Under the pieces are notes generated by a model that was not told the origin of the DNA, ran no database searches, and worked only from the letters and a program-made list of their open reading frames with translations. From a virus, in the IMG/VR virus record IMGVR_UViG_3300045988_009599: a DNA stretch of 37,371 nt; one strand, 5' to 3'. Position 1 is the first letter of the stretch; every line of letters starts with the position of its first letter. Of this stretch, positions 15,090-35,537 are shown one piece after another. The translations under genes were made by a program, and so were the position numbers.

Positions 15090-15649
15090 CAGGTCTCACC
15101 CAACTTTCCCTTGATCCAGGCAACGGCCTCCGCCGCGGTGTCGACGGTCTCGGTCTCGAGCAGCAGCTCGTCGGTCGAATCGTCTGCGAGGAACTCGCCG
15201 GTCGTGGTCGGCGTGTTGAACTGGATGTTCTCGCCCTTGGTCTGATAGCTCAGCGAGGGCGGGCCGAACAGCGCTTTCGGCACCCAGACGCAGGTGTATT
15301 TGGTCACGCCGTCGATCTTATCCGGCGCGTAAAAGCCAACGCCGACATAGTTTGCGATGTCTTTTGCCGAGAATTTCAGATTTTCTTTGCTCGTATCGGA
15401 TGTGCAGCCGTAGAGCATGGCCTGTGCGGCCTTTTTGATGTACTTGACAGCCAGCGAGATCGTTCCGCCGGTGGCAAGCTTGATATACTCGGCAAGCTTG
15501 GATTCCGCGTACAGGCGGCCCTCGGCGAACTTGAGTTCCAGCTGCGCGCTCATGGCGTCGCCGACGTCGGTCGGCTCTGTGTAGGTCACGGTGCCGGACG
15601 TGTTTTTATACTTTCCCGCCCGGATGCCGCGTAAGTCAAAACTAGGCAT
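15089..15649 (-). CDS. Major tail protein (phi13-like family)
   Basis: 186 aa. Position upstream of the chaperones. ...AEGRLYAESKLAEYIKLATGG... resembles phi13-type major tail proteins. Confidence 0.75.
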   Translation of the reverse strand: MPSFDLRGIRAGKYKNTSGTVTYTEPTDVGDAMSAQLELKFAEGRLYAESKLAEYIKLATGGTISLAVKYIKKAAQAMLYGCTSDTSKENLKFSAKDIANYVGVGFYAPDKIDGVTKYTCVWVPKALFGPPSLSYQTKGENIQFNTPTTTGEFLADDSTDELLLETETVDTAAEAVAWIKGKLGET

Positions 15650-24998: not shown

Positions 24999-25188
24999 TT
25001 TCTTCTCCTTCCACTCCTTCCAATTCTCCTTCGCAGTATGTGCAGCGGCTCGGCAGGCTCTTTTTCAAACCGCCTTTTTCCCAGAGCTCGAAGCACGGTT
25101 TCTCCGGTCTGCCGCAGTATGGGCAGCGGTAGACACGGAAGATATCATCCCAGCGCCAGACCATGCGGACTGCGTTTTTCTTCTTCAA
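24988..25188 (-). CDS. Small zinc-ribbon protein, 66 aa
   Basis: CPYC ... CTYC pairs. Confidence 0.5.
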   Translation of the reverse strand: MKKKNAVRMVWRWDDIFRVYRCPYCGRPEKPCFELWEKGGLKKSLPSRCTYCEGELEGVEGEENDH

Positions 25189-25540
25189 GCCCCATCGCCT
25201 CCCTCATTGCTTCAATCAGCCTCTTTTCTAGTTTGTCCTGATTGATCTTCACTTCCATCGTTACGCCCTCCTGCTCTACCCACACGCCGTCCGTGCGCTT
25301 TGTAAATCCTGCTGGTGCAAAATTTCTGGCGTGTTCCAGCTCCGGCGTATGCCTGCACGTTGGATAGCTGCATTTCTCGCACGCCTTTCTGTCGCAAAGA
25401 AATAGGATATTCCGCTCTTTCGCTCGCGATACGCTGTTCGGCAGAAGAACGACTGGCTGCCCGATCTCCGCCGCAAGCTGCTCCTGAAGCTTTTCCCGAT
25501 CGCCGTCGCGCATTGAGGCTGTGCATTCCAGCAAAATCAT
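25145..25540 (-). CDS. Hypothetical early protein, 131 aa
   Basis: ORF-track ORF in the early operon frame series. Cys cluster CDRKACEKCSYPTC. Confidence 0.5.
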   Translation of the reverse strand: MILLECTASMRDGDREKLQEQLAAEIGQPVVLLPNSVSRAKERNILFLCDRKACEKCSYPTCRHTPELEHARNFAPAGFTKRTDGVWVEQEGVTMEVKINQDKLEKRLIEAMREAMGLEEEKRSPHGLALG

Positions 25541-25887
25541 TCCTGCTCCGCCTCCATTTCCTTTCGCTCCTGCATAAAGCCGTGCAGGAACAGCTCCAGC
25601 AGAGCAGCGGCGCGGTTGGTCAGATTTGTGAAATCCTTTTTGCTGATCTGCAGTTTGCCGGTCGTAACAACCTCAGTCTCCGGTCGACCAATAATCTGAA
25701 TTGTCGGATTAGGCACCAGCGTCTTTGCACCGTCCGCCCCCACTTCGAAGAGCGGCGGCGTGGACTGCTCCATGACGATGCGCGGCGGGTATTGCTCGCC
25801 GCGGAAGCTGGTATCCCATTGCTGTTTTTCGTAGTATGCGACAAAATTGTCTAGGTCGTGCGCAAACGCGCCCATGATTTCTGCCAT
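25537..25887 (-). CDS. Hypothetical early protein, 116 aa
   Basis: Internal ATG (MAEIMGAFAHDLDNF...). Confidence 0.5.
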   Translation of the reverse strand: MAEIMGAFAHDLDNFVAYYEKQQWDTSFRGEQYPPRIVMEQSTPPLFEVGADGAKTLVPNPTIQIIGRPETEVVTTGKLQISKKDFTNLTNRAAALLELFLHGFMQERKEMEAEQE

Positions 25888-25900
25888 TTTGATGCTCCTT

Positions 25901-26290
25901 TCAGATTTCCACGCACTCATTGGCGCGGATATTGATCCGTTTTCCACCGGACTGGATCACATATCCTGCGTTTTTGAGTTTGTTCGGGCCGTACTTTTCT
26001 GCGGCATGCTCCGATCCGACGGTCGGCTGGTATTCCGGGTCGACCGGCACTTTGCATATGATGCGGATGCGCACCATCGTGTGCGGCAGGCGGCGCGGCT
26101 CCTCCGGCTTCTGTGGCTCCGGCGTCGTGTTCATCGCAGCCATTCTGGCGCGCCGCTCTATGTGCTGCGCGATCGACGCGCAGGAGCGGCTGCAATAATA
26201 CCTCCCGCTCTTATTCTCGTTTGCCTTTCCGAGCGTCCGCAGAAACTTCTTCCCGCACAGCTCGCATTTCAGTTCCACGTATTGTTCCAT
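25901..26290 (-). CDS. Hypothetical early protein with N-terminal CxxC...CxxxC, 129 aa
   Basis: MEQYVELKCELCGKKF...YYCSRSC. AAAGG-type RBS. Confidence 0.55.
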   Translation of the reverse strand: MEQYVELKCELCGKKFLRTLGKANENKSGRYYCSRSCASIAQHIERRARMAAMNTTPEPQKPEEPRRLPHTMVRIRIICKVPVDPEYQPTVGSEHAAEKYGPNKLKNAGYVIQSGGKRINIRANECVEI

Positions 26291-26727
26291 GGCTTTCTGT
26301 CCTTTCTTTGGTCAGGGGCCGGTATCCCGGCCCCCGGCAGTGGACGGCCTCGCACCGCCTGCGCCCGCGCTGCCCCAAGTCCGATCCTGCGCGGGCGAGC
26401 CGCCCTTGTCTGCGTCGGGCTGCTTTTGAGGGAGGTTCACCATGCCCCCGGGTGCGTAAAGCCCGGGAGTGGGGTAACGTTTTCCGGCACGTTCCACACC
26501 GTTTTATCCCCGCCCGCAGGCTTGAGGGGTCCTGCGGGCGGGAATCCCCAGCCGATTCCGAGCCCAGCATCGCGGGTCGGAATCGGAAAGGAAGAAGGAG
26601 CCTGCGGATATGGAGCTTTCGGCTTTCGCCGGAAGCGGAATGGAACAGGCTTCTTCTGACGCAAAGCCGGGGTGATCCTTCCGCCGGTGTCTCATGGCAA
26701 AGCGTCGGCGGCATAAGCCCACAAAAA
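26291..26727 (-). other. 437-nt GC-rich, hairpin-dense non-coding tract (candidate structured RNA or replication origin)
   Basis: No credible ORF here; all candidates are R/P/G-rich. Perfect stems: 26315-26334 (8 bp), 26362-26397 (9 bp), 26509-26542 (12 bp), 26552-26586 (10 bp), plus CCCGGG pairs at 26447-26467. Confidence 0.5.
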
Positions 26728-26952
26728 TTATGTATCCCCGGCTGATTGCTGTGGTTTCTGGCAGCCCGGCTGCACACCTACGTGCTTGCCATACTTGCCA
26801 TCCTCTCCCTGCTCAAGCGGCAGGGTCTTTCTTCGGGCCTGCTCAGCCGCGTTCCAGCCGCAGCCCTCGCAAAATTCACTGCCCAGTGCTGCCATCATGC
26901 AGGATCTGGCGCTCTTTGGCAGCATGCACTGCTCGTTTTTTTCGTCGTCCAT
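26728..26952 (-). CDS. Small Cys-rich protein, 74 aa
   Basis: ATG lies 7 nt after GGAGG and 2 nt after the upstream gene's stop. C-x..C...C-x2-C pattern. Confidence 0.55.
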   Translation of the reverse strand: MDDEKNEQCMLPKSARSCMMAALGSEFCEGCGWNAAEQARRKTLPLEQGEDGKYGKHVGVQPGCQKPQQSAGDT

Positions 26953-26954
26953 GC

Positions 26955-27389
26955 TCAAACCTCCTGTATATCGATCCCGTATTTGGATCGCATGAATTTT
27001 TTGTTGCGCAGATACTCCTTCGTCCGCGTCGCCATGGACTTGACGTCCTCGACGACCAGCTTGCCGCCGAAGCGGTACGAAAAGTCCGCCGTGTACCGGA
27101 TCGCGCGGATTCGCTCTCCGGTCTCTGTCACATAAGATTCCTGCAGCGTGAATTGCGGCTGCAGCCGCAGCTCCGTGATGATCCCGGCCCGCAGCATGGT
27201 CATCAGCTCATCATACCTGCGTGCCTCCTTCTGGCTGTCGAACCGAACCCCGGCCCGCTCGGCTGGCGTACTGTGATACTTCGTGCCCTTCTTCGGCCCC
27301 GCGTCAGCCCCCGGCATCTGCTGCCGTGCATAAAGCTCCCGCATCCTCAACGGCATGTCCGCCATGGATTCAAACCGCAGTCCGCTCAT
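26955..27389 (-). CDS. DUF1064-like endonuclease (phage resolvase-like)
   Basis: 144 aa. ...GVRFDSQKEARRYDEL...IRYTADFSY...VVEDVKS..T... matches the DUF1064 pattern as I remember it. Confidence 0.75.
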   Translation of the reverse strand: MSGLRFESMADMPLRMRELYARQQMPGADAGPKKGTKYHSTPAERAGVRFDSQKEARRYDELMTMLRAGIITELRLQPQFTLQESYVTETGERIRAIRYTADFSYRFGGKLVVEDVKSMATRTKEYLRNKKFMRSKYGIDIQEV

Positions 27390-27676
27390 TCAGTCGCGCC
27401 TCCCGTATTTGTCTGATATTCGCCGCAGCTGCAAAAATCGTATGGATATGCCGATGGCAAAATCCCATGGTGGCGCGGATGTCCACAGTTGCCCGCTTCA
27501 GTCCGATGCTTGCAGTCCTTGCACCGCACCACCTCCGCAACGTCGGCGGTGGGCTGGCGCAGCAGGAGCGTTTTCACCCGCTGAGGTGTCCAGTTCTGGT
27601 TGGCTTTGTTGCATTCCTCAAAGTCTTTCAGCGTATCAGTTCTGCTGATAAATTCTTCAGTCGCAACGTTTTCCAT
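27386..27676 (-). CDS. Hypothetical early protein with Cys/His cluster, 96 aa
   Basis: Internal ATG (MENVATEEF...). VVRCKDCKHRTEAGNCGHPRHH. Confidence 0.5.
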   Translation of the reverse strand: MENVATEEFISRTDTLKDFEECNKANQNWTPQRVKTLLLRQPTADVAEVVRCKDCKHRTEAGNCGHPRHHGILPSAYPYDFCSCGEYQTNTGGATE

Positions 27677-27923
27677 CGTCAAACTCCCTCCAAGTGTGAT
27701 ACAGTGCCCATGCCAGCGGGTCACGGACGAACGGCAGCTTTTTCGCTTCCGCGTATTTCTTATCGAGGATGCTCATAGCCTTTTTCCACGCGCGATCTCC
27801 GACGTGCAGTTCTGCCGGGAAGCAGACTTTCTCCAGTCTGTTGATTTTTGCGGCGGTCAGTATCGATCTGCCGTTCTCATCAAGAAGGTCGAGCAGGTCC
27901 TGATCTTTTATGTAATACACCAT
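27657..27923 (-). CDS. Hypothetical early protein, 88 aa
   Basis: ORF-track ORF in the operon series. Confidence 0.5.
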   Translation of the reverse strand: MVYYIKDQDLLDLLDENGRSILTAAKINRLEKVCFPAELHVGDRAWKKAMSILDKKYAEAKKLPFVRDPLAWALYHTWREFDDGKRCD

Positions 27924-27924
27924 T

Positions 27925-28374
27925 TCAAAGTTCCCCCTCTGGCACGCCGAACATCTCTATGATTTTTTTCATGACCTCACCGATTTTTCGCTCATAATCT
28001 CCGTAGGCTTCGCCTTCCACTTCCAAATAAATTGCAACCGCCATAACGTGCAGAGGAATTATAGGGTCTGTTTCTGCAGCATAAAGAACATCACCTACTT
28101 TGCACGGCAGCACCACCACGCGCCCTTCCTTGTCGGCCTCGGCAAGCTCACGAAGTCGTTCGTAGCTGCCAATGCTGTTGAGCACAGAAAGCATCGCTTG
28201 CCACTCGCCCCATAGACTGTGGATCTCAGTAGGAGCGAGTTTTGTGTCCAAGTAATCCTCCAGCAACGGACAGTGTGCTGCGGGAACGGCTGTGCAGAAC
28301 CCACCAGTTGCCGTGCAATTTCCGTTGTCTAGGTGTCTGAATCTACATCTCAGGCAGTTTACGTTTCCCATCAC
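27925..28374 (-). CDS. Hypothetical early protein, 149 aa (paralogous core with 28343-28900)
   Basis: Shares RLRELAEADKEGRVVVLPCKVGD with its neighbour. N-terminal Cys cluster. Confidence 0.55.
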   Translation of the reverse strand: MMGNVNCLRCRFRHLDNGNCTATGGFCTAVPAAHCPLLEDYLDTKLAPTEIHSLWGEWQAMLSVLNSIGSYERLRELAEADKEGRVVVLPCKVGDVLYAAETDPIIPLHVMAVAIYLEVEGEAYGDYERKIGEVMKKIIEMFGVPEGEL

Positions 28375-28900
28375 TTACCTCCAACGCCCGCTCGGCTTCC
28401 TCGCGGGTCAAAAATACGGTTTTGCCGATGTCTGCGCCATCATTACGCAGACGATACGTGCAGAACCCGTCCGGCTTGCGATTGCACGTTGACATACACA
28501 GATTATCCTCATCCGTGCAAACAGTTCTGATGTCCGGGGCTTCAAGCTCCATTTCTCGCGGCACATTGTCACGGCCAGTCACCCATAGCGTATCGCCCAC
28601 CTTGCACGGCAGCACCACCAGCCGCCCGTCCTTGTCGGCCTCGGCAAGCTCGCGGAGGCGGTCAAACCCGCCGCACAGCTCGGCAATGTCCTCGTAGGCT
28701 TTCAGCCGTCCGTACAGATCGCGGGCCATCTTGCGGAAAATATCCTTGCCAAAGCCGTTGCTCGTTGGGCCGTTGATCAGCACGTTGAGCGTGCTGTCCC
28801 GGCTCTGCTTCCAGTCGATTTCCTTGCCGCCGATCGCGGCGTGTAGAAATTGGTCGGTGCCCGGGTCGACGTTGATATTAGGACTTGTCAGTCGTTCCAT
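28343..28900 (-). CDS. Hypothetical early protein, 185 aa
   Basis: Contains RLRELAEADKDGRLVVLPCKVGD and a C-terminal IGKTVFLTREEAERAL motif. Confidence 0.55.
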   Translation of the reverse strand: MERLTSPNINVDPGTDQFLHAAIGGKEIDWKQSRDSTLNVLINGPTSNGFGKDIFRKMARDLYGRLKAYEDIAELCGGFDRLRELAEADKDGRLVVLPCKVGDTLWVTGRDNVPREMELEAPDIRTVCTDEDNLCMSTCNRKPDGFCTYRLRNDGADIGKTVFLTREEAERALEVSDGKRKLPEM

Positions 28901-29175
28901 TTCAAAACCCCTTTCTCAACATATCTGCAATACGCAATTTCCAACTTTGCACCCTTGCTTTCCTTCGCATCCGGCAGCGCGAACAAAATATCCGCCGCAT
29001 CGATCATCCCGAAGCACAGCCGCATGTAGTCCTTCGGTGTCAGCCCTTCCGGAAGTTCCGCCGGATTCAAGATCACCGCGAGAGGATACAGCTCCTGTAT
29101 GTGCTTTGCCGCCATGCGGAATTTCATCTTGTAATTCGGGTCTCCGGTGATTTTACCGGCTATGTAAATCTTCAC
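28888..29175 (-). CDS. DUF4406 / nucleoside 2-deoxyribosyltransferase-like protein
   Basis: 95 aa. MKIYIAGKITGDPNY...VILNP. Confidence 0.6.
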   Translation of the reverse strand: MKIYIAGKITGDPNYKMKFRMAAKHIQELYPLAVILNPAELPEGLTPKDYMRLCFGMIDAADILFALPDAKESKGAKLEIAYCRYVEKGVLKWND

Positions 29176-29657
29176 AGCTCTGCCTCCACATACCGCCAGC
29201 TCTGGGGTGGGCGTGTGATTGGCTTGGGTTTTGCCTTGAGCGCTACCTCTACCTCATTTGGCACAGCGTAAAATTCCCGCAATTCGCGCGGCGTATCGTA
29301 AATCTTGAGGTTGGATATGTGCCATCCGTAGCCGACGCCGCCGTCCAGATACTTCTCCAGCTCGTCTTTTGTCAGGCAGGCATCTGCAAGAATCGTATCA
29401 AGTGGTGTGCAGTCCATGTTCCAATCGCAGATGCAATATTTCGGCGGTTCACAGATTGCTCCTACTCTGACGATCCTTGCAAAAATGTCGTCGCATACAA
29501 ACTCGCCGATGACGCCGCCCTGAACCGAACGGTAAATGTAGCACTTAAACGGTGGGTTCATCTTCGGGCGCGTCTTGCGCACCTCGATCGTTTTCTCACC
29601 GCTTATGATCTTCTCGCACCACTCCGGGCGAATGCTGATAAGTACGGCTTTACTCAT
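29172..29657 (-). CDS. ASCH (PUA-like) domain protein
   Basis: 161 aa. LISIRPEWCEKIISGEKTIEVRK. Confidence 0.6.
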   Translation of the reverse strand: MSKAVLISIRPEWCEKIISGEKTIEVRKTRPKMNPPFKCYIYRSVQGGVIGEFVCDDIFARIVRVGAICEPPKYCICDWNMDCTPLDTILADACLTKDELEKYLDGGVGYGWHISNLKIYDTPRELREFYAVPNEVEVALKAKPKPITRPPQSWRYVEAEL

Positions 29658-30070
29658 TCCGTTTCACCCCCCATCAGATTGTCGTATACATTGCCAACTA
29701 CAAGCGGGCCTCTGCGTGGATCGCACATCCAATATCCGCTCGACGGGTTATATTTCACTAATTCCGGCTTGTTTGAGAGCCGCCGCGGATTTGTCGAAAT
29801 CACGAGGTCACCCTCGAAAATCTTCTTACCATTCGTGTCCTTTAGCCCGGTGTATTGTCCGACAGTCACAGGGTCTACATCCACTCTCAAATGCTGGTTC
29901 GGAAGTCCCCAGTCGGTCATCCGGTCAAAAACGATGTAATGTTTGGTGTTGTCCGGGTGTGCGGCATAGTCCTCTTGGAAGCAATAGGCCGTATCCGAAA
30001 GAGCCATGTAGTACCCCTCGTACCATGTTCCACTCTCGGGGTCTTTCCCACGAAATAATATCTCACGCAT
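29654..30070 (-). CDS. YopX family protein
   Basis: 138 aa. MREILFRGK...W.EGYY...VTVGQYTGLKDTNGKKIFEGDLV. Confidence 0.8.
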   Translation of the reverse strand: MREILFRGKDPESGTWYEGYYMALSDTAYCFQEDYAAHPDNTKHYIVFDRMTDWGLPNQHLRVDVDPVTVGQYTGLKDTNGKKIFEGDLVISTNPRRLSNKPELVKYNPSSGYWMCDPRRGPLVVGNVYDNLMGGETE

Positions 30071-30254
30071 TCCGCTTGCCCTCCATCGCCCGCTCGGTCT
30101 CCTCGCGGGTCAGGAATACGGTCTTGCCGATTTCATTAGCGTTTATGCCATGCCGATCTTGGGTTTCTCCGACCTTGCAGTTTTCGCACGCGTCGTCGTG
30201 CCCAAGCCCCTTCGCGCAGCACCGCAGTGCCTTCACGATTTCATCACTTGTCAT
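30063..30254 (-). CDS. Small Cys-containing protein with GKTVFLTREE motif, 63 aa
   Basis: The C-terminal EIGKTVFLTREETERAM is shared with 28343-28900. Confidence 0.5.
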   Translation of the reverse strand: MTSDEIVKALRCCAKGLGHDDACENCKVGETQDRHGINANEIGKTVFLTREETERAMEGKRNA

Positions 30255-31123
30255 GTTTCATCCTCCATCCCTTCAAATACCATCTGCCCAGGCAGAACGC
30301 CGTCTTCGAGCCACCAGTGCATCACGTCCTCGCCGGTCTGCCACTCACACGGAAGATCTCGCTTGCGCCGTTCGTCCAGCATCCTGCCGAACGCTCGGAT
30401 ATACGCGGCCTTGATCTTTGGATAGCGTGCAAACTCCACCTTCCGGTGCTTGCCTGCCATTGGGCACCCAATGCACCCCACGCGCTTCCATCCGCATTCA
30501 TACAGCGGATTCATGCAGATCTTTTCGGCAGATGCGTAGTCCAACACATCAGATTCCGTCCAGTCGATGATTGGATTGATCGTCCGCGTCCCCTTGAGCT
30601 GGCAGTTTTCCATCAGCATGCGGCTTTCGTCATTGTCGTTCATCAGCGTCAGCCGCTTGTCCTTGCTCTTATGCAGTGCTTCCATAACGCCGCGAGATTT
30701 CCGCTTTTGTGATTCCGCCCAGCGAACGCCAGTTGCAATCCATCTTCCTTTCCCACCGCCTTCTTTGAGTTCTGCGCAGCAGTAGCGCACCAGGCGTGTC
30801 GGCGGCATCAGCTTGCGCGGGATCAGGTTCCACATCGTCACGTTCCCGCCGTCCGGCGTCCGGTGCGTATCGATGTCGCATTTTACGCCAGCCAGCTCCA
30901 AGCGGCGGAAGGTATCCCGCACATGCCAGACAGTCTCCGGCGCGTCCGCCGTGGTCAGCGAATGCAAAACCTCATACTGGATACCGGCTTTGCCCGCCAG
31001 ATGCAAAAGCACGTCCGAGTCCTTGCCGCCCGAGTATGTAATCACAATCGGCTGCTTGTACAGGCGCAGGCTCATATCCGAGGCCATCCGCAGCCGCTCA
31101 ATCGCGGTTTGTTCTAAGTCCAT
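30251..31123 (-). CDS. PAPS-reductase-family (PP-loop ATP pyrophosphatase, DndC-like) protein
   Basis: 290 aa. PP-loop YSGGKDSDV. Cys pairs RYCCAELK and GCIGCP suggest an Fe-S site. Confidence 0.8.
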   Translation of the reverse strand: MDLEQTAIERLRMASDMSLRLYKQPIVITYSGGKDSDVLLHLAGKAGIQYEVLHSLTTADAPETVWHVRDTFRRLELAGVKCDIDTHRTPDGGNVTMWNLIPRKLMPPTRLVRYCCAELKEGGGKGRWIATGVRWAESQKRKSRGVMEALHKSKDKRLTLMNDNDESRMLMENCQLKGTRTINPIIDWTESDVLDYASAEKICMNPLYECGWKRVGCIGCPMAGKHRKVEFARYPKIKAAYIRAFGRMLDERRKRDLPCEWQTGEDVMHWWLEDGVLPGQMVFEGMEDET

Positions 31124-33226: not shown

Positions 33227-33382
33227 TTACGCAGTTTGCTTGTCCTGCTCGGGCTCCTGCTTGGCTTCCTTTGCCAGCGCCATGCCATAGGCGATATCGC
33301 TCAGACGCTGCATCTGTGCCGGTGTCAGCTTCTCAGTATTCTTGCTCAGGCTTTCCATGACCTGCTTTTCTTTTTCGGACAT
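33227..33382 (-). CDS. First early-lytic ORF, 51 aa (not in the ORF track)
   Basis: Hand translation gives MSEKEKQVMESLSKNTEKLTPAQMQRLSDIAYGMALAKEAKQEPEQDKQTA. GAGGTGGG RBS. Lies directly downstream of the leftward promoter. Confidence 0.5.
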   Translation of the reverse strand: MSEKEKQVMESLSKNTEKLTPAQMQRLSDIAYGMALAKEAKQEPEQDKQTA

Positions 33383-33396
33383 TGTTCCCACCTCGC

Positions 33397-33529
33397 ATTG
33401 TCACGACAATTTACTGCCGCGTTTTGTATTGTGACTACACTGTACCACCCTTTTTGTGTTTTGTCAATACATTTATGCAAAATATTTTTACCGTTTTTGT
33501 ATTGACAATACACTTGCCTCGTGTATAAT
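33397..33529. promoter_or_regulatory. Divergent lysis-lysogeny switch with operators sharing a TTGTCAAT/ATTGACAA core and two promoters
   Basis: Palindromes ATTGTCACGACAAT (33397-33410) and GTATTGACAATAC (33499-33511). Half-site copies at 33424-33436 and 33461-33470. Rightward promoter TTGACA 33502-33507 / TATAAT 33524-33529. Leftward promoter TTGACA (rc of 33462-33467), 17 nt, TACAGT (rc of 33439-33444). Confidence 0.7.
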
Positions 33530-33550: not shown

Positions 33551-33922
33551 ATGACAATCAACGATCGGATCAAAGAGATTCGCAAGATTTCCGGGCTCTC
33601 TCAAACTGACTTTGCGGAGCGTCTCGGCACAACGCGCGGTGTGATTACAAATCTCGAGGGCGAGAAGACCACGCCGAACGAGCCGTTTATTAAACTGATC
33701 TGTCGAGAGTTTAATATCAATGAGGCCTGGCTCCGTACTGGCGATGGCGAAATGAAGCAGAAGCTTACGAGGAATCAGGAGATCGCCGAGTTCATGGGTG
33801 TCGTCATGCACGACCCGGACGACTCGCCGCGCAAGCGGTTTGTATCGATCATCAGCAAGCTCAGCGTTGACGAATGGCAGCTGCTCGCCGATATTGCAAA
33901 AAAAATGGCCGAGGACGAATAA
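33551..33922 (+). CDS. Phage repressor, XRE-family HTH (CI-like, no S24 peptidase domain), 123 aa
   Basis: AAGGAGG RBS. INDRIKEIRKISGLSQTDFAERLGTTRGVITNLEGEKTTP. Divergent from the early operon. Confidence 0.85.
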   Translation: MTINDRIKEIRKISGLSQTDFAERLGTTRGVITNLEGEKTTPNEPFIKLICREFNINEAWLRTGDGEMKQKLTRNQEIAEFMGVVMHDPDDSPRKRFVSIISKLSVDEWQLLADIAKKMAEDE

Positions 33923-33942
33923 CCGTCCTCGCCTCATTTTTT
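33911..33942. terminator. Bidirectional terminator between convergent transcripts
   Basis: Stem gaggacg / cgtcctc with loop aataac. T-runs follow on both strands. Confidence 0.65.
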
Positions 33943-33953
33943 GTGCTTCCGGT

Positions 33954-34064
33954 CTATGCGACCAGCGACCGCACAAAGCGCCACACAAGATCAAGCTCCG
34001 CTTCTGTGGCCTGCCGCAGCAGTTTTCTGATCTCCTGCATCAGTTCTGATCGTGTCAGTTCCAT
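33954..34064 (-). CDS. 36-aa ORF downstream of a LexA-box promoter (candidate antirepressor or SOS peptide)
   Basis: GGAGG lies 5 nt upstream of the ATG. MELTRSELMQEIRKLLRQATEAELDLVWRFVRSLVA. Not in the ORF track (under 60 aa). Confidence 0.4.
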   Translation of the reverse strand: MELTRSELMQEIRKLLRQATEAELDLVWRFVRSLVA

Positions 34065-34181
34065 ACGTTCCTCCATTCTTCCACAAAAAGGCCGTTCATT
34101 TTTTGTTCATTTTTCCGGTTGCGCGTTCCTTTTCCTTGGCTTACAATATTTGTAGGATGATTTATCCCCGCTCGCATAATT

Positions 34182-34210
34182 ATATTAGAACATGTGTTCT
34201 ATAATTACAA
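34182..34210 (-). promoter_or_regulatory. Leftward promoter TTGTAA-17-TAATAT with the SOS box in its spacer
   Basis: -35 is the rc of 34205-34210 and -10 is the rc of 34182-34187. The spacer is 34188-34204. Confidence 0.5.
34186..34201. promoter_or_regulatory. LexA (Cheo/SOS) box, Gram-positive type
   Basis: Perfect palindrome TAGAACATGTGTTCTA contains GAAC-N4-GTTC. It abuts a plus-strand TATAAT (34200-34205). Confidence 0.6.
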
Positions 34211-34256
34211 TTATGAGAGCCTACAAAAATTTATATGTCAAACTGGAGGTTTTGCC

Positions 34257-34421
34257 ATGCGACGTATCTGGCAGAAGTTTGCCCTTGTTTCGGTCTCCTG
34301 CCTGCTTGCGGTCGCTGCGTGGATCGGCCTTTTACACCTTGCGGATAACATTTCCGCCATCCGCTCTTATCGCGCGTCCGATCCTATCGTCCAGCAGGCC
34401 GCCAGCCACGTGGAGGAGTAA
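34257..34421 (+). CDS. Small membrane protein, 54 aa
   Basis: GGAGG lies 7 nt upstream. TM helix FALVSVSCLLAVAAWIGLL. Confidence 0.6.
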   Translation: MRRIWQKFALVSVSCLLAVAAWIGLLHLADNISAIRSYRASDPIVQQAASHVEE

Positions 34422-34423
34422 CT

Positions 34424-34915
34424 ATGTACTGTAACAAATGCGGTAAAGAGATCGACGACGAGGCTCTGATCTGCCCGCACTGCGGCTGCGGCACCTTGAA
34501 TTATATCCGCGATCAGGCAAAGGCGGAGGCCCGCGTGCAGGTGCAGGCCGCACCGGCGCGGAAAAAGCGCTCGACTGCTCTGCTGCTTTGCATTTTTCTT
34601 GGTGGCCTTGGGGCGCACCGGTTTTATGTAGGCAAGATCTGGACGGGTCTGCTCTGGCTTATCACGCTTGGCTTTTGTGGTATCGGCACATTGGTCGACT
34701 TCTGCCGGATCTATGATAACAAGTTCACAGACGACGCCGGGCGCCCGCTCTACGATGAGTACACGGATGGCATGACGCCTGAGGAATACGAGTCCGCCGT
34801 CGCTGGTCCCCGCAGAGTCAGGAAAGTTATCATCGTCATTGCCCTTGCGCTTTGCGCTGGCTGCTTCCTGTTCGTCCGCGTCATCCCCGGCCTCATGTAC
34901 GCGCTTGGTTTTTGA
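34424..34915 (+). CDS. Zinc-ribbon + TM2-domain membrane protein, 163 aa
   Basis: CNKCG...CPHCG. TM2-like LLLCIFLGGLGAHRFYVGKIWTGLLWLITLGFCGIGTLVDF. A C-terminal extra TM helix. Confidence 0.75.
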   Translation: MYCNKCGKEIDDEALICPHCGCGTLNYIRDQAKAEARVQVQAAPARKKRSTALLLCIFLGGLGAHRFYVGKIWTGLLWLITLGFCGIGTLVDFCRIYDNKFTDDAGRPLYDEYTDGMTPEEYESAVAGPRRVRKVIIVIALALCAGCFLFVRVIPGLMYALGF

Positions 34916-35042: not shown

Positions 35043-35537
35043 ATGAGATTTTTTGAGAAATCCGCATTTTCTGGATTTTCATTTTTGGAAAGGATCGTGG
35101 AAACCTTGGAAACCTGTGAAAATCGCATCCGTTCAGAGCGTTTGTCTCGCGGCATGACGCTGAACGATCTGTCCGACGCCTCCGGCGTTTCCGTCGCCAG
35201 CCTCTCGCGCTATGAGCGCGGCTGCGACGTCCCTTCGTCCGCTCTGCACCGGATCGCGGACGCGATGGACACGGACAGCGCCGTGCTGCTGGACCAGCCG
35301 GATAAAATGCCGCGCATCGCCGAGCTTGAGCTGCGGCTCAAGCATGCTAAAGCGATCATTTCCAAGCAGGAACAGATCATCCGCCAGAAGTCCGTCGAGG
35401 CGCGGCGCAAGGATGTTTTGATCGGCGTGCTTGTGTGCATCGTTCTCGTCTCGCTTCTGGCGCTCCTCGTCGACCTTTGTAATCCCAATATCGGCTGGGT
35501 CCGCGCCTCCGCGCTTGCATCCTTTGTGCCCGTATAA
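35043..35537 (+). CDS. Membrane-anchored XRE-family HTH protein (start uncertain)
   Basis: HTH LSRGMTLNDLSDASGVSVASLSRYERG, a coiled segment, then TM VLIGVLVCIVLVSLLALLV. ATG 35043 lacks an RBS. In-frame TTG/GTG alternatives lie 14-21 codons downstream of it. Confidence 0.65.
   Translation: MRFFEKSAFSGFSFLERIVETLETCENRIRSERLSRGMTLNDLSDASGVSVASLSRYERGCDVPSSALHRIADAMDTDSAVLLDQPDKMPRIAELELRLKHAKAIISKQEQIIRQKSVEARRKDVLIGVLVCIVLVSLLALLVDLCNPNIGWVRASALASFVPV

Follow-up and report, generated by a model that had tools for sequence, protein, structure and literature searches.

To our knowledge, the ways in which prophages of the dominant gut Firmicutes (Oscillospiraceae and Lachnospiraceae) sense DNA damage are largely unknown, and many gut Firmicutes prophage repressors have no cleavage domain. 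One candidate route is found in IMG/VR record IMGVR_UViG_3300045988_009599, a viral stretch of 37,371 nucleotides (nt) that is referred to here as the window. In it, a small open reading frame (smORF) of 36 amino acids (aa) is preceded by a LexA-type box of the SOS response and runs convergently toward the gene of a 123-aa CI-type repressor. The peptide is probably a LexA-controlled, SinI-like decoy anti-repressor, which would disable a non-cleavable repressor by mimicking its pairing helices.

Closest Described Systems

The AimX/AimC pair has been described in the Bacillus arbitrium phages phi106, phiW23, and BMBtp14 (Kabel et al., bioRxiv 10.1101/2025.11.23.689978; PDB 9sf2, 9iaq). AimX is a helical protein of 29-80 aa that binds the C-terminal domain of AimC, blocking oligomerisation and DNA binding, and its gene is convergent with or overlaps that of the helix-turn-helix (HTH) repressor AimC, with a LexA site upstream in phi106 (bioRxiv 10.1101/2025.11.23.689978). 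AimC itself is unresponsive to mitomycin C, and the authors liken AimX/AimC to SinI-SinR (bioRxiv 10.1101/2025.11.23.689978).

The window locus shares with AimX/AimC a short XRE-type repressor that is not inactivated by RecA, a divergent lytic promoter under repressor control, and a small helical open reading frame (ORF) convergent with the gene of that repressor, whose C-terminal domain is likewise helical. As in the phi106 family, a LexA site lies upstream of the small ORF. The two differ in host (human-gut Clostridia here, Bacillus there) and in the first lytic gene, which here encodes a hairpin protein rather than a Cro-like HTH protein. Furthermore, no co-directional aimR-aimP lies upstream of the smORF, where the genes are on the plus strand only (a 54-aa membrane peptide, a TM2-domain protein, an HTH-transmembrane protein, and a serine recombinase). 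Since aimR and aimP are absent and the upstream membrane genes are on the other strand, LexA is apparently the sole input. In a sequence search of the PDB, the phi106 repressor (9sf2_A) matched only the HTH of the window repressor (residues 6-69, E 1e-3), neither the C-terminal domain nor the small ORF showed detectable similarity to AimX/AimC, and the smORF profile had no match among PDB chains. AimX/AimC is the closest relative of this locus in logic and architecture; the family, in its present definition, does not include the locus.

SinI-SinR of B. subtilis (PDB 1b0n; PMC3163267) offers a similar repressor, an XRE-type HTH protein of ~110-120 aa with a C-terminal helical pairing module. 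SinI is a small helical protein that resembles this module, heterodimerises with SinR, and abolishes its DNA binding (PMC3163267); for the window peptide, such contact is proposed only. SinR is the fifth-ranked whole-length Foldseek match of the window repressor, and a D-x-E-W-x-x-L signature, recognized by eye, is common to both C-terminal domains. Unlike a LexA-controlled phage switch, SinI-SinR is a biofilm switch on the chromosome that answers to Spo0A, and its two genes share one strand, with sinI upstream. Membership in the Pfam SinI family was rejected, as model PF08671 gave no match at E<=1 in 40 C-terminal domains, 40 smORFs, or the proteins of the window.

Anti-repressors under a LexA operator that inactivate a non-cleavable repressor without proteolysis also include Tum of phage 186, GfoA/GfhA of the Gifsy phages (PMC3121763), and Sar of SPbeta/phi3T (bioRxiv 10.1101/2025.11.27.690993). 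Experimental demonstration of small LexA-controlled anti-repressors exists for SPbeta and phi3T (Sar/SroF; bioRxiv 10.1101/2025.11.27.690993). These proteins are unrelated to the window peptide and mostly larger, with other targets (SroF is integrase-like, Sar mimics DNA) and another gene position; Tum and the Gifsy proteins, Sar excepted, further differ in belonging to Proteobacteria with a CTGT-N8-ACAG box. GIL01 gp7 resembles the window peptide in being small (50 aa), in coming from a phage of a Gram-positive host, and in its tie to LexA-box control, and differs in that it binds LexA and strengthens repression in a phage without CI (PMC4551915). A role of the smORF product as a gp7-like LexA co-repressor was rejected for want of sequence similarity (hhalign probability 1%). 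It is quite likely that the peptide performs a known class of function, that of a LexA-controlled anti-repressor of a non-cleavable repressor. What is new is an unannotated small-protein family linked to a widespread Clostridia prophage repressor, together with its breadth and with LexA as the apparent sole input.

The LexA Box and the smORF Promoter

The control region of the smORF comprises the following features.

34186-34201: LexA-type (SOS) box TAGAAC-ATGT-GTTCTA, the 16-mer TAGAACATGTGTTCTA, with core GAAC-N4-GTTC at 34188-34199
34210..34205, minus strand: -35 hexamer TTGTAA of the smORF promoter
34187..34182, minus strand: -10 hexamer TAATAT of the smORF promoter, separated from the -35 by 17 nt and adjoining the box
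34065..34175, minus strand: smORF leader of ~110 nt, with an inferred start site

The initial annotation had recognized here the GAAC-N4-GTTC core of the Firmicutes LexA/DinR box, and this core is present with ATGT as N4. Its description of the 16-mer as a perfect palindrome is overstated: the 6-nt arms are palindromic, and the central ATGT is not (two mismatches of the 16-mer to its own reverse complement). The LexA (DinR, "Cheo") operator of Firmicutes/Clostridia (B. subtilis/Clostridium) is GAACN4GTT(C/T), usually flanked by C/A...T/G, a sequence which aGAAC-ATGT-GTTCt (34187-34200) fits (PMC4234289). Three copies of GAACN4GTTC are seen in the window, where 0.38 would be expected; those at 15527 and 17589 are within long ORFs and probably arose by chance. 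The case against chance is weak from the single window and strong from comparative evidence.

On the minus strand the box fills the 17-nt spacer (TTATAGAACACATGTTC) of TTGTAA...TAATAT, at the coordinates originally proposed. It overlaps the core promoter elements as expected of a LexA operator, occupying the spacer and touching the -10, and does so likewise in relatives and distant loci. The proposal of face-to-face promoters is likewise overstated, as the plus strand has only a TATAAT (34200-34205), which has no acceptable -35 and is not conserved in related phages of sequence groups A and B.

Conservation of the Box in Related and Distant Loci

A repressor search of IMG/VR yielded 73 related loci at 45-94% identity. 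GAAC-N4-GTTC is found in 62/73 of these at the same distance (~260 bp) past the repressor stop, and two more carry GAAC-N4-GTTT; box, promoter, and ORF are kept together in about 64/73. The N4 differs among relatives (ATAC, ATCC, ATCT, ATGT), as do the flanks, while GAAC/GTTC is constant. The -35 TTGTAA is invariant in groups A, B, and WIN, and the -10 of relatives is TAATAT or TATGAT.

Beyond these relatives, a profile search of 185,579 species genomes provided 80 further loci from Oscillospiraceae, Lachnospiraceae, and other Clostridia; most of them have 36-53% identity, and one has 91%. In these distant loci, the 240-bp zone at 90-330 bp beyond the repressor (19.2 kb altogether) contains 19 strict boxes, and the other 556 kb contain 12, a 46-fold enrichment in this zone (0.99 vs 0.022 per kb, Poisson p 3e-25). 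Presence of a box also goes with the smORF: 29/52 loci with a smORF have one vs 5/28 without (Fisher p 0.0018). The consensus of 44 distinct boxes, read on the smORF strand, is cGAACa.ATGTTC-TATAAT, and a -10 with at least five of six positions is found in 53/67 contexts on this strand vs 23/67 on the other. By this measure, operator and -10 are fused in the distant loci, with the -10 directed toward the small ORF. The plus-strand genes beyond the box are unrelated to each other and at variable distance (integrases, lipoproteins, HTH proteins). Given the association of box and smORF and these unrelated genes on the far side, the small ORF is the constant partner of the operator.

These data bear on the plus-strand side of the box, where the following features lie.

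34170-34220: 51-bp imperfect palindrome centred on the LexA box, with arms GCTCGCATAATTATA / TACAATTATGAGAGC
34258-34421, plus strand: 54-aa membrane peptide
34424-34915, plus strand: zinc-ribbon/TM2-domain membrane protein

The box might mainly control the 54-aa and TM2 genes as SOS-induced accessory genes, with the smORF irrelevant or sharing the operator. The perfect TATAAT overlaps the box, which in turn lies within the 51-bp near-palindrome; these genes are without another obvious promoter, and the same 54-aa gene follows the box in close relatives. Such an arrangement is nevertheless unlikely, since the TATAAT has neither an acceptable -35 nor conservation in groups A and B, the -10 adjoining the box points to the smORF across the 67 distinct contexts, and the distant plus-strand neighbours change while the smORF stays. 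Control of the membrane genes is a possible side effect of LexA binding, yet it is not the conserved part; as secondary targets of the box, the two genes may be co-regulated by LexA. Adjoining the box as they do (34258-34915), they are also candidate lysogenic-conversion or exclusion genes. The outer arms of the palindrome, CTC[G/T]CAT, recur in groups A and B, and the promoter hexamers do not account for them. They could be the sign of a further dimeric regulator or of a symmetric divergent promoter.

Several other loci show boxes or repeats in other arrangements. The related loci L041-L048 have no box near the smORF and instead carry a GAAC-GTTC-GTTC box in the spacer of TTGAAA-17-TAAAAT (~4755; L041 4548-4790). 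This box directly precedes an unrelated 66-aa ORF (MEVHQMQSINIRFENGKVNIIVDG...), 1.2 kb from the repressor, which may encode a different SOS-controlled regulator. Among cultured phages, Blautia phage Montmirail (ON453898; L161, 1907-2130) has a convergent 39-aa ORF (WAK79206) behind two LexA-like boxes, AAAACATATGTTCT and AGAATATATGTTCC, and Butyrivibrio phage Arawn (L160, 1865-2000) has a 39-aa ORF without a box, preceded instead by the direct repeat AGTGACTAAAAAGGG x2.

The smORF and Its Leader

The smORF and its immediate signals are as follows.

33954..34064, minus strand: smORF of 36 aa (MELTRSELMQEIRKLLRQATEAELDLVWRFVRSLVA), ATG at 34064 and stop at 33956..33954, the proposed LexA-controlled anti-repressor
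34074..34070, minus strand: ribosome-binding site GGAGG, five nt before the ATG
33910-33931: bidirectional intrinsic terminator, with a stem of 8-9 bp, 6 GC pairs, and T-runs on both strands

The ribosome-binding site, the convergence with the repressor, and the stop at a bidirectional terminator were all part of the initial annotation and were borne out. The terminator is common to the repressor and the smORF, with the repressor stop codon in its loop; on the minus strand, it reads as a 9-bp GC-rich hairpin followed by a T-run (33931..33900).

The smORF occurs as the window's own form, two main variants ~55-60% identical to it, and three more divergent ones. These six aligned variants are 33-65% identical and share the core I-x-x-x-L-x-x-A-T-x-x-x-L-D-L-V/I-W-R-F, and in every one of them the frame is open and has a ribosome-binding site. 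In the conserved half (the C-terminal 22 codons), the ratio of nonsynonymous to synonymous change (pN/pS) is 0.23-0.63, with substitutions biased to synonymous sites. On this pattern of substitution, the smORF is a gene and evolves as a protein under purifying selection.

The peptide had been described as having no evident family match, which is correct for Pfam and PHROGs; it does belong to an unannotated family. A profile search of 5.8 billion proteins recovered at least 90 clusters, all of 30-72 aa and none with a Pfam domain, whose names are "hypothetical protein" or blank, and a HMMER scan of 1.84 billion representatives recovered 47 smORF clusters. As judged by hidden Markov model, a convergent ORF of 30-45 aa with the same HTH-like pattern is present in 52/80 distant loci (e.g., MDYKKLIIELLDMADERRLKLVYCYVKALLG and MLHRTDTIREIVRLLKGADDRELVIALEFIRSLT). 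These ORFs lie within ~150 bp of the repressor stop, mostly 0-40 bp from it, and sometimes overlap the repressor gene. In the few records inspected, the small ORF was missing from the annotation (Arawn) or entered as a hypothetical protein (Montmirail; JGI contigs). The AlphaFold2 (AF2) model of the window peptide, even without an alignment, is a two-helix hairpin (H5-18 and H21-35) with a predicted local distance difference test score (pLDDT) of 95.8. Foldseek returned no matches for this 36-aa model, because the query is too short.

The ~110-nt leader contains AAAAATGAAC x2 (34094-34114), as first noted; the plus-strand reading is GTTCATTTTT at 34094 and 34105. This direct repeat has an 11-bp period, carries a LexA half-site (GTTC/GAAC) in each copy, and is partly kept in relatives. 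A structured RNA or riboswitch in the leader was ruled out, as folding gave no stable structure (z = +1.0) and no Rfam family matched.

The initial annotation had offered an antisense RNA as an alternative to the peptide. The minus-strand transcript would then act as RNA, reading through the terminator to run antisense to the repressor mRNA and into the lytic operon, and would lower repressor synthesis by antisense pairing or transcriptional interference, with the ORF incidental. The convergence of the smORF with the repressor and its orientation along the lytic operon are compatible with such a route, and aimX transcripts had at one time been suggested to work in antisense (see 10.1101/2025.11.23.689978). 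It is disfavoured, however, by the strong minus-strand terminator (9-bp stem and T-run) past the end of the ORF, by the conserved ribosome-binding site and the purifying selection that the ORF shows, and by the leader's lack of significant structure and of an Rfam match. In the Bacillus system, moreover, the antisense part had little effect, and a start-codon mutant lost function (10.1101/2025.11.23.689978). An RNA-based mechanism is thus highly improbable for the window locus.

A Repressor without a Cleavage Module

The repressor and the immunity region consist of the following.

33551-33922, plus strand: CI-type repressor of 123 aa, with an XRE-type HTH (residues 3-63) and a three-helix C-terminal domain
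33422, 33454, and 33495: three operators TGTATTG-N-CAATACA (TGTATTGACAATACA), within the immunity region 33422-33529
33502-33529, plus strand: repressor promoter TTGACA-16-TATAAT
33467..33439, minus strand: lytic promoter TTGACA-17-TACAGT

Pfam finds only HTH_19/HTH_3 in the repressor and no S24 peptidase module, in agreement with the earlier description of a 123-aa protein without this domain. No ORF of at least 80 aa in the window contains an HExxH motif, which rules out an ImmA/IrrE-type protease route among these frames. As expected for the LexA-controlled anti-repressor class, the repressor has neither an S24 autocleavage domain nor an ImmA-type partner. Classical Ant/Bro anti-repressors were also considered and set aside, as none of the ten largest minus-strand ORFs (112-290 aa, 25145-31123) has a PHROG antirepressor annotation; smaller ORFs nearest the lytic promoter were unscanned.

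The AF2 model of the repressor (48 homologues, pLDDT 91) has a five-helix HTH domain followed by an all-helical C-terminal domain (helices 74-86, 91-102, and 106-121). In related and otherwise similar phages, a virtually invariant C-terminal domain, always with the smORF next to it, carries one of three very different HTH variants, the junction being near residue 58. This suggests that the phages swap operator specificity as a cassette and keep the C-terminal domain and the smORF as a unit. The repressors of the window and of loci L001-L071 are two-part mosaics, a pattern that implies cassette exchange of their HTH variants (immunity types).

Likeness of the Peptide to the Repressor's Proposed Pairing Hairpin

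The part of the repressor that the peptide is proposed to imitate is the following.

33821-33913, plus strand: repressor residues 91-121, the last two helices, the proposed pairing surface

An alignment of 40 diverse smORFs was compared by hhalign with the last ~35-45 residues of 40 diverse repressors. The two profiles match with a probability of 78% (E 1.8e-5, score 24.4) over 36 columns in register, and the aligned smORF helices coincide with repressor helices 91-102 and 106-121. Among 200 column shuffles, the mean score was 8.0 and the maximum 16.6 (0/200 reached the real score), and the reversed alignment scored 12.1. Whole-length Foldseek matches of the entire repressor are DdrO, SinR (1b0n, the SinR-SinI complex), AimC (9iaq), and the phi106 repressor-AimX complex (9sf2). 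Because of the hairpin model, the profile match, and these SinR/AimC-type folds, the peptide is read as a decoy of the repressor's pairing hairpin. Divergence of the smORF tracks that of the C-terminal domain (rho 0.49) more than that of the HTH (rho 0.24), which physical proximity could account for.

An SOS-induced peptide might also act elsewhere: on LexA itself (cf. gp7 of GIL01), on the HTH-membrane protein at 35043-35537, or on RNA polymerase. Small phage proteins that bind LexA exist (PMC4551915), the lysogeny module has another HTH protein to offer as a target, and the evidence that ties the peptide to the 123-aa repressor is indirect. Against this stand the want of any gp7 similarity, the constant position of the smORF (always adjacent to and convergent with a repressor bearing this C-terminal domain, whereas the second HTH gene is no constant neighbour), and the fact that the profile similarity of the smORF is to the C-terminal hairpin of that very repressor. 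A target other than the repressor therefore seems very unlikely.

Proposed Mechanism

The decoy anti-repressor reading builds on what sequence and comparison establish at this locus: the box and promoter, a coding ORF linked to the repressor, and the missing cleavage module. The initial suggestion that SOS induction proceeds through a small ORF under LexA, directed at a repressor that cannot be cleaved, is supported by the co-conservation of box, promoter, and ORF, by the coding status, by the hairpin likeness, and by the precedent in Bacillus phages. From these we infer binding of LexA to the box, contact between peptide and repressor, and loss of oligomerisation. In the lysogen, host LexA bound to GAAC-ATGT-GTTC would keep the smORF silent, because the occupied box fills the promoter spacer and touches the -10. 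Upon DNA damage, active RecA would trigger the self-cleavage of LexA, and the smORF promoter would fire. The resulting short mRNA would end at the terminator common with the repressor gene and yield the two-helix hairpin peptide. This peptide would bind the C-terminal helical domain of the 123-aa repressor, replacing the hairpin of the partner repressor, as in SinI/SinR and AimX/AimC. Repressor pairing on the three TGTATTG-N-CAATACA operators would then collapse, releasing the leftward lytic operon.

Several observations weigh against this mechanism. The smORF promoter matches only 8/12 sigma-70 consensus positions and was unflagged by a promoter scanner, although it is conserved. In relatives L040, L041-48, and L050/51, the smORF is kept without an adjacent box, and LexA control is therefore frequent but neither universal nor obligatory; LexA control of aimX is likewise described as not universal (bioRxiv 10.1101/2025.11.23.689978). 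The hairpin similarity is a modest (78%) profile signal at the level of the family, and short amphipathic helices can converge. Locus-specific mimicry was rejected, as a smORF is no closer to the C-terminal domain of its own repressor than to those of others (z ~0). Three smORF variants that are ~55-60% identical pair with an almost identical C-terminal domain, and with several variants on one domain, specific co-evolution is not established. Finally, the inferred host, an Oscillospiraceae bacterium, is assigned solely from a 91%-identical repressor in an Oscillospiraceae metagenome-assembled genome.

The HTH repressor with a helical C-terminal domain, the convergent ORF of 30-45 aa, and the LexA box fused to the -10 of this ORF form a compact, recognisable module that recurs in dozens of Clostridia lineages. 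If the proposed mechanism is true, this module would serve as a sequence rule by which SOS-inducible gut prophages can be predicted (quinolones and colibactin being examples of inducers), and decoys of the AimX/SinI type would no longer be confined to Bacillus or to arbitrium. Cultured phages in which to test it would be at hand, Blautia phage Montmirail of B. coccoides among them.

A Possible Second Decoy in the Cro Position

The first gene of the lytic operon is the following.

33227..33382, minus strand: first lytic-operon gene ("cro position") of 51 aa (MSEKEKQVMESLSKNTEKLTPAQMQRLSDIAYGMALAKE...), with no HTH and no Pfam family

The core of this protein resembles the C-terminal hairpin of the repressor (KLTPAQMQRLSDIAYGMA vs KLSVDEWQLLADIAKKMA). 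Its family, with the consensus MSEKEKKILETF.K.IP.L.E.EKE.LL.FGEGMA, is present in 42/80 distant loci. Compared with the C-terminal profile by hhalign, it gave a probability of 47% (E 2e-4, score 21.3), a score which 0/200 shuffles reached (maximum 18.1). As a hypothesis, the 51-aa protein could be a second decoy that takes the place of Cro and, through positive feedback, locks the switch. A more tentative and on balance doubtful extension is a switch with three copies of one helical hairpin and no Cro, made up of the repressor's C-terminal hairpin, the LexA-gated 36-aa peptide as trigger decoy, and the ~50-aa hairpin of the lytic operon. The third hairpin (33382..33227) would titrate the repressor once the lytic promoter fires, a positive feedback purely by protein-protein competition. 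If this were true, competition among hairpins would, in many Clostridia prophages, take over the part that a DNA-binding Cro plays in classical switches.

The Phage and Its Lysogeny Module

The window is a complete temperate phage contig of ~37 kb and ~58% GC. A nucleotide search of GenBank phages gave two short partial matches only (12% and 3% of the query), neither of which covers most of the region. The early lytic genes are on the minus strand and run leftward from the divergent promoter region, and the lysogeny module occupies the right end of the window on the plus strand, where the genes past the TM2 protein are as follows.

35043-35537, plus strand: second XRE-type HTH protein (164 aa), with a coiled-coil and a C-terminal transmembrane segment
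35567-37156, plus strand: large serine recombinase

The second HTH-transmembrane gene, located between the TM2 gene and the integrase, is kept in close relatives as an HTH gene of 136-150 aa.

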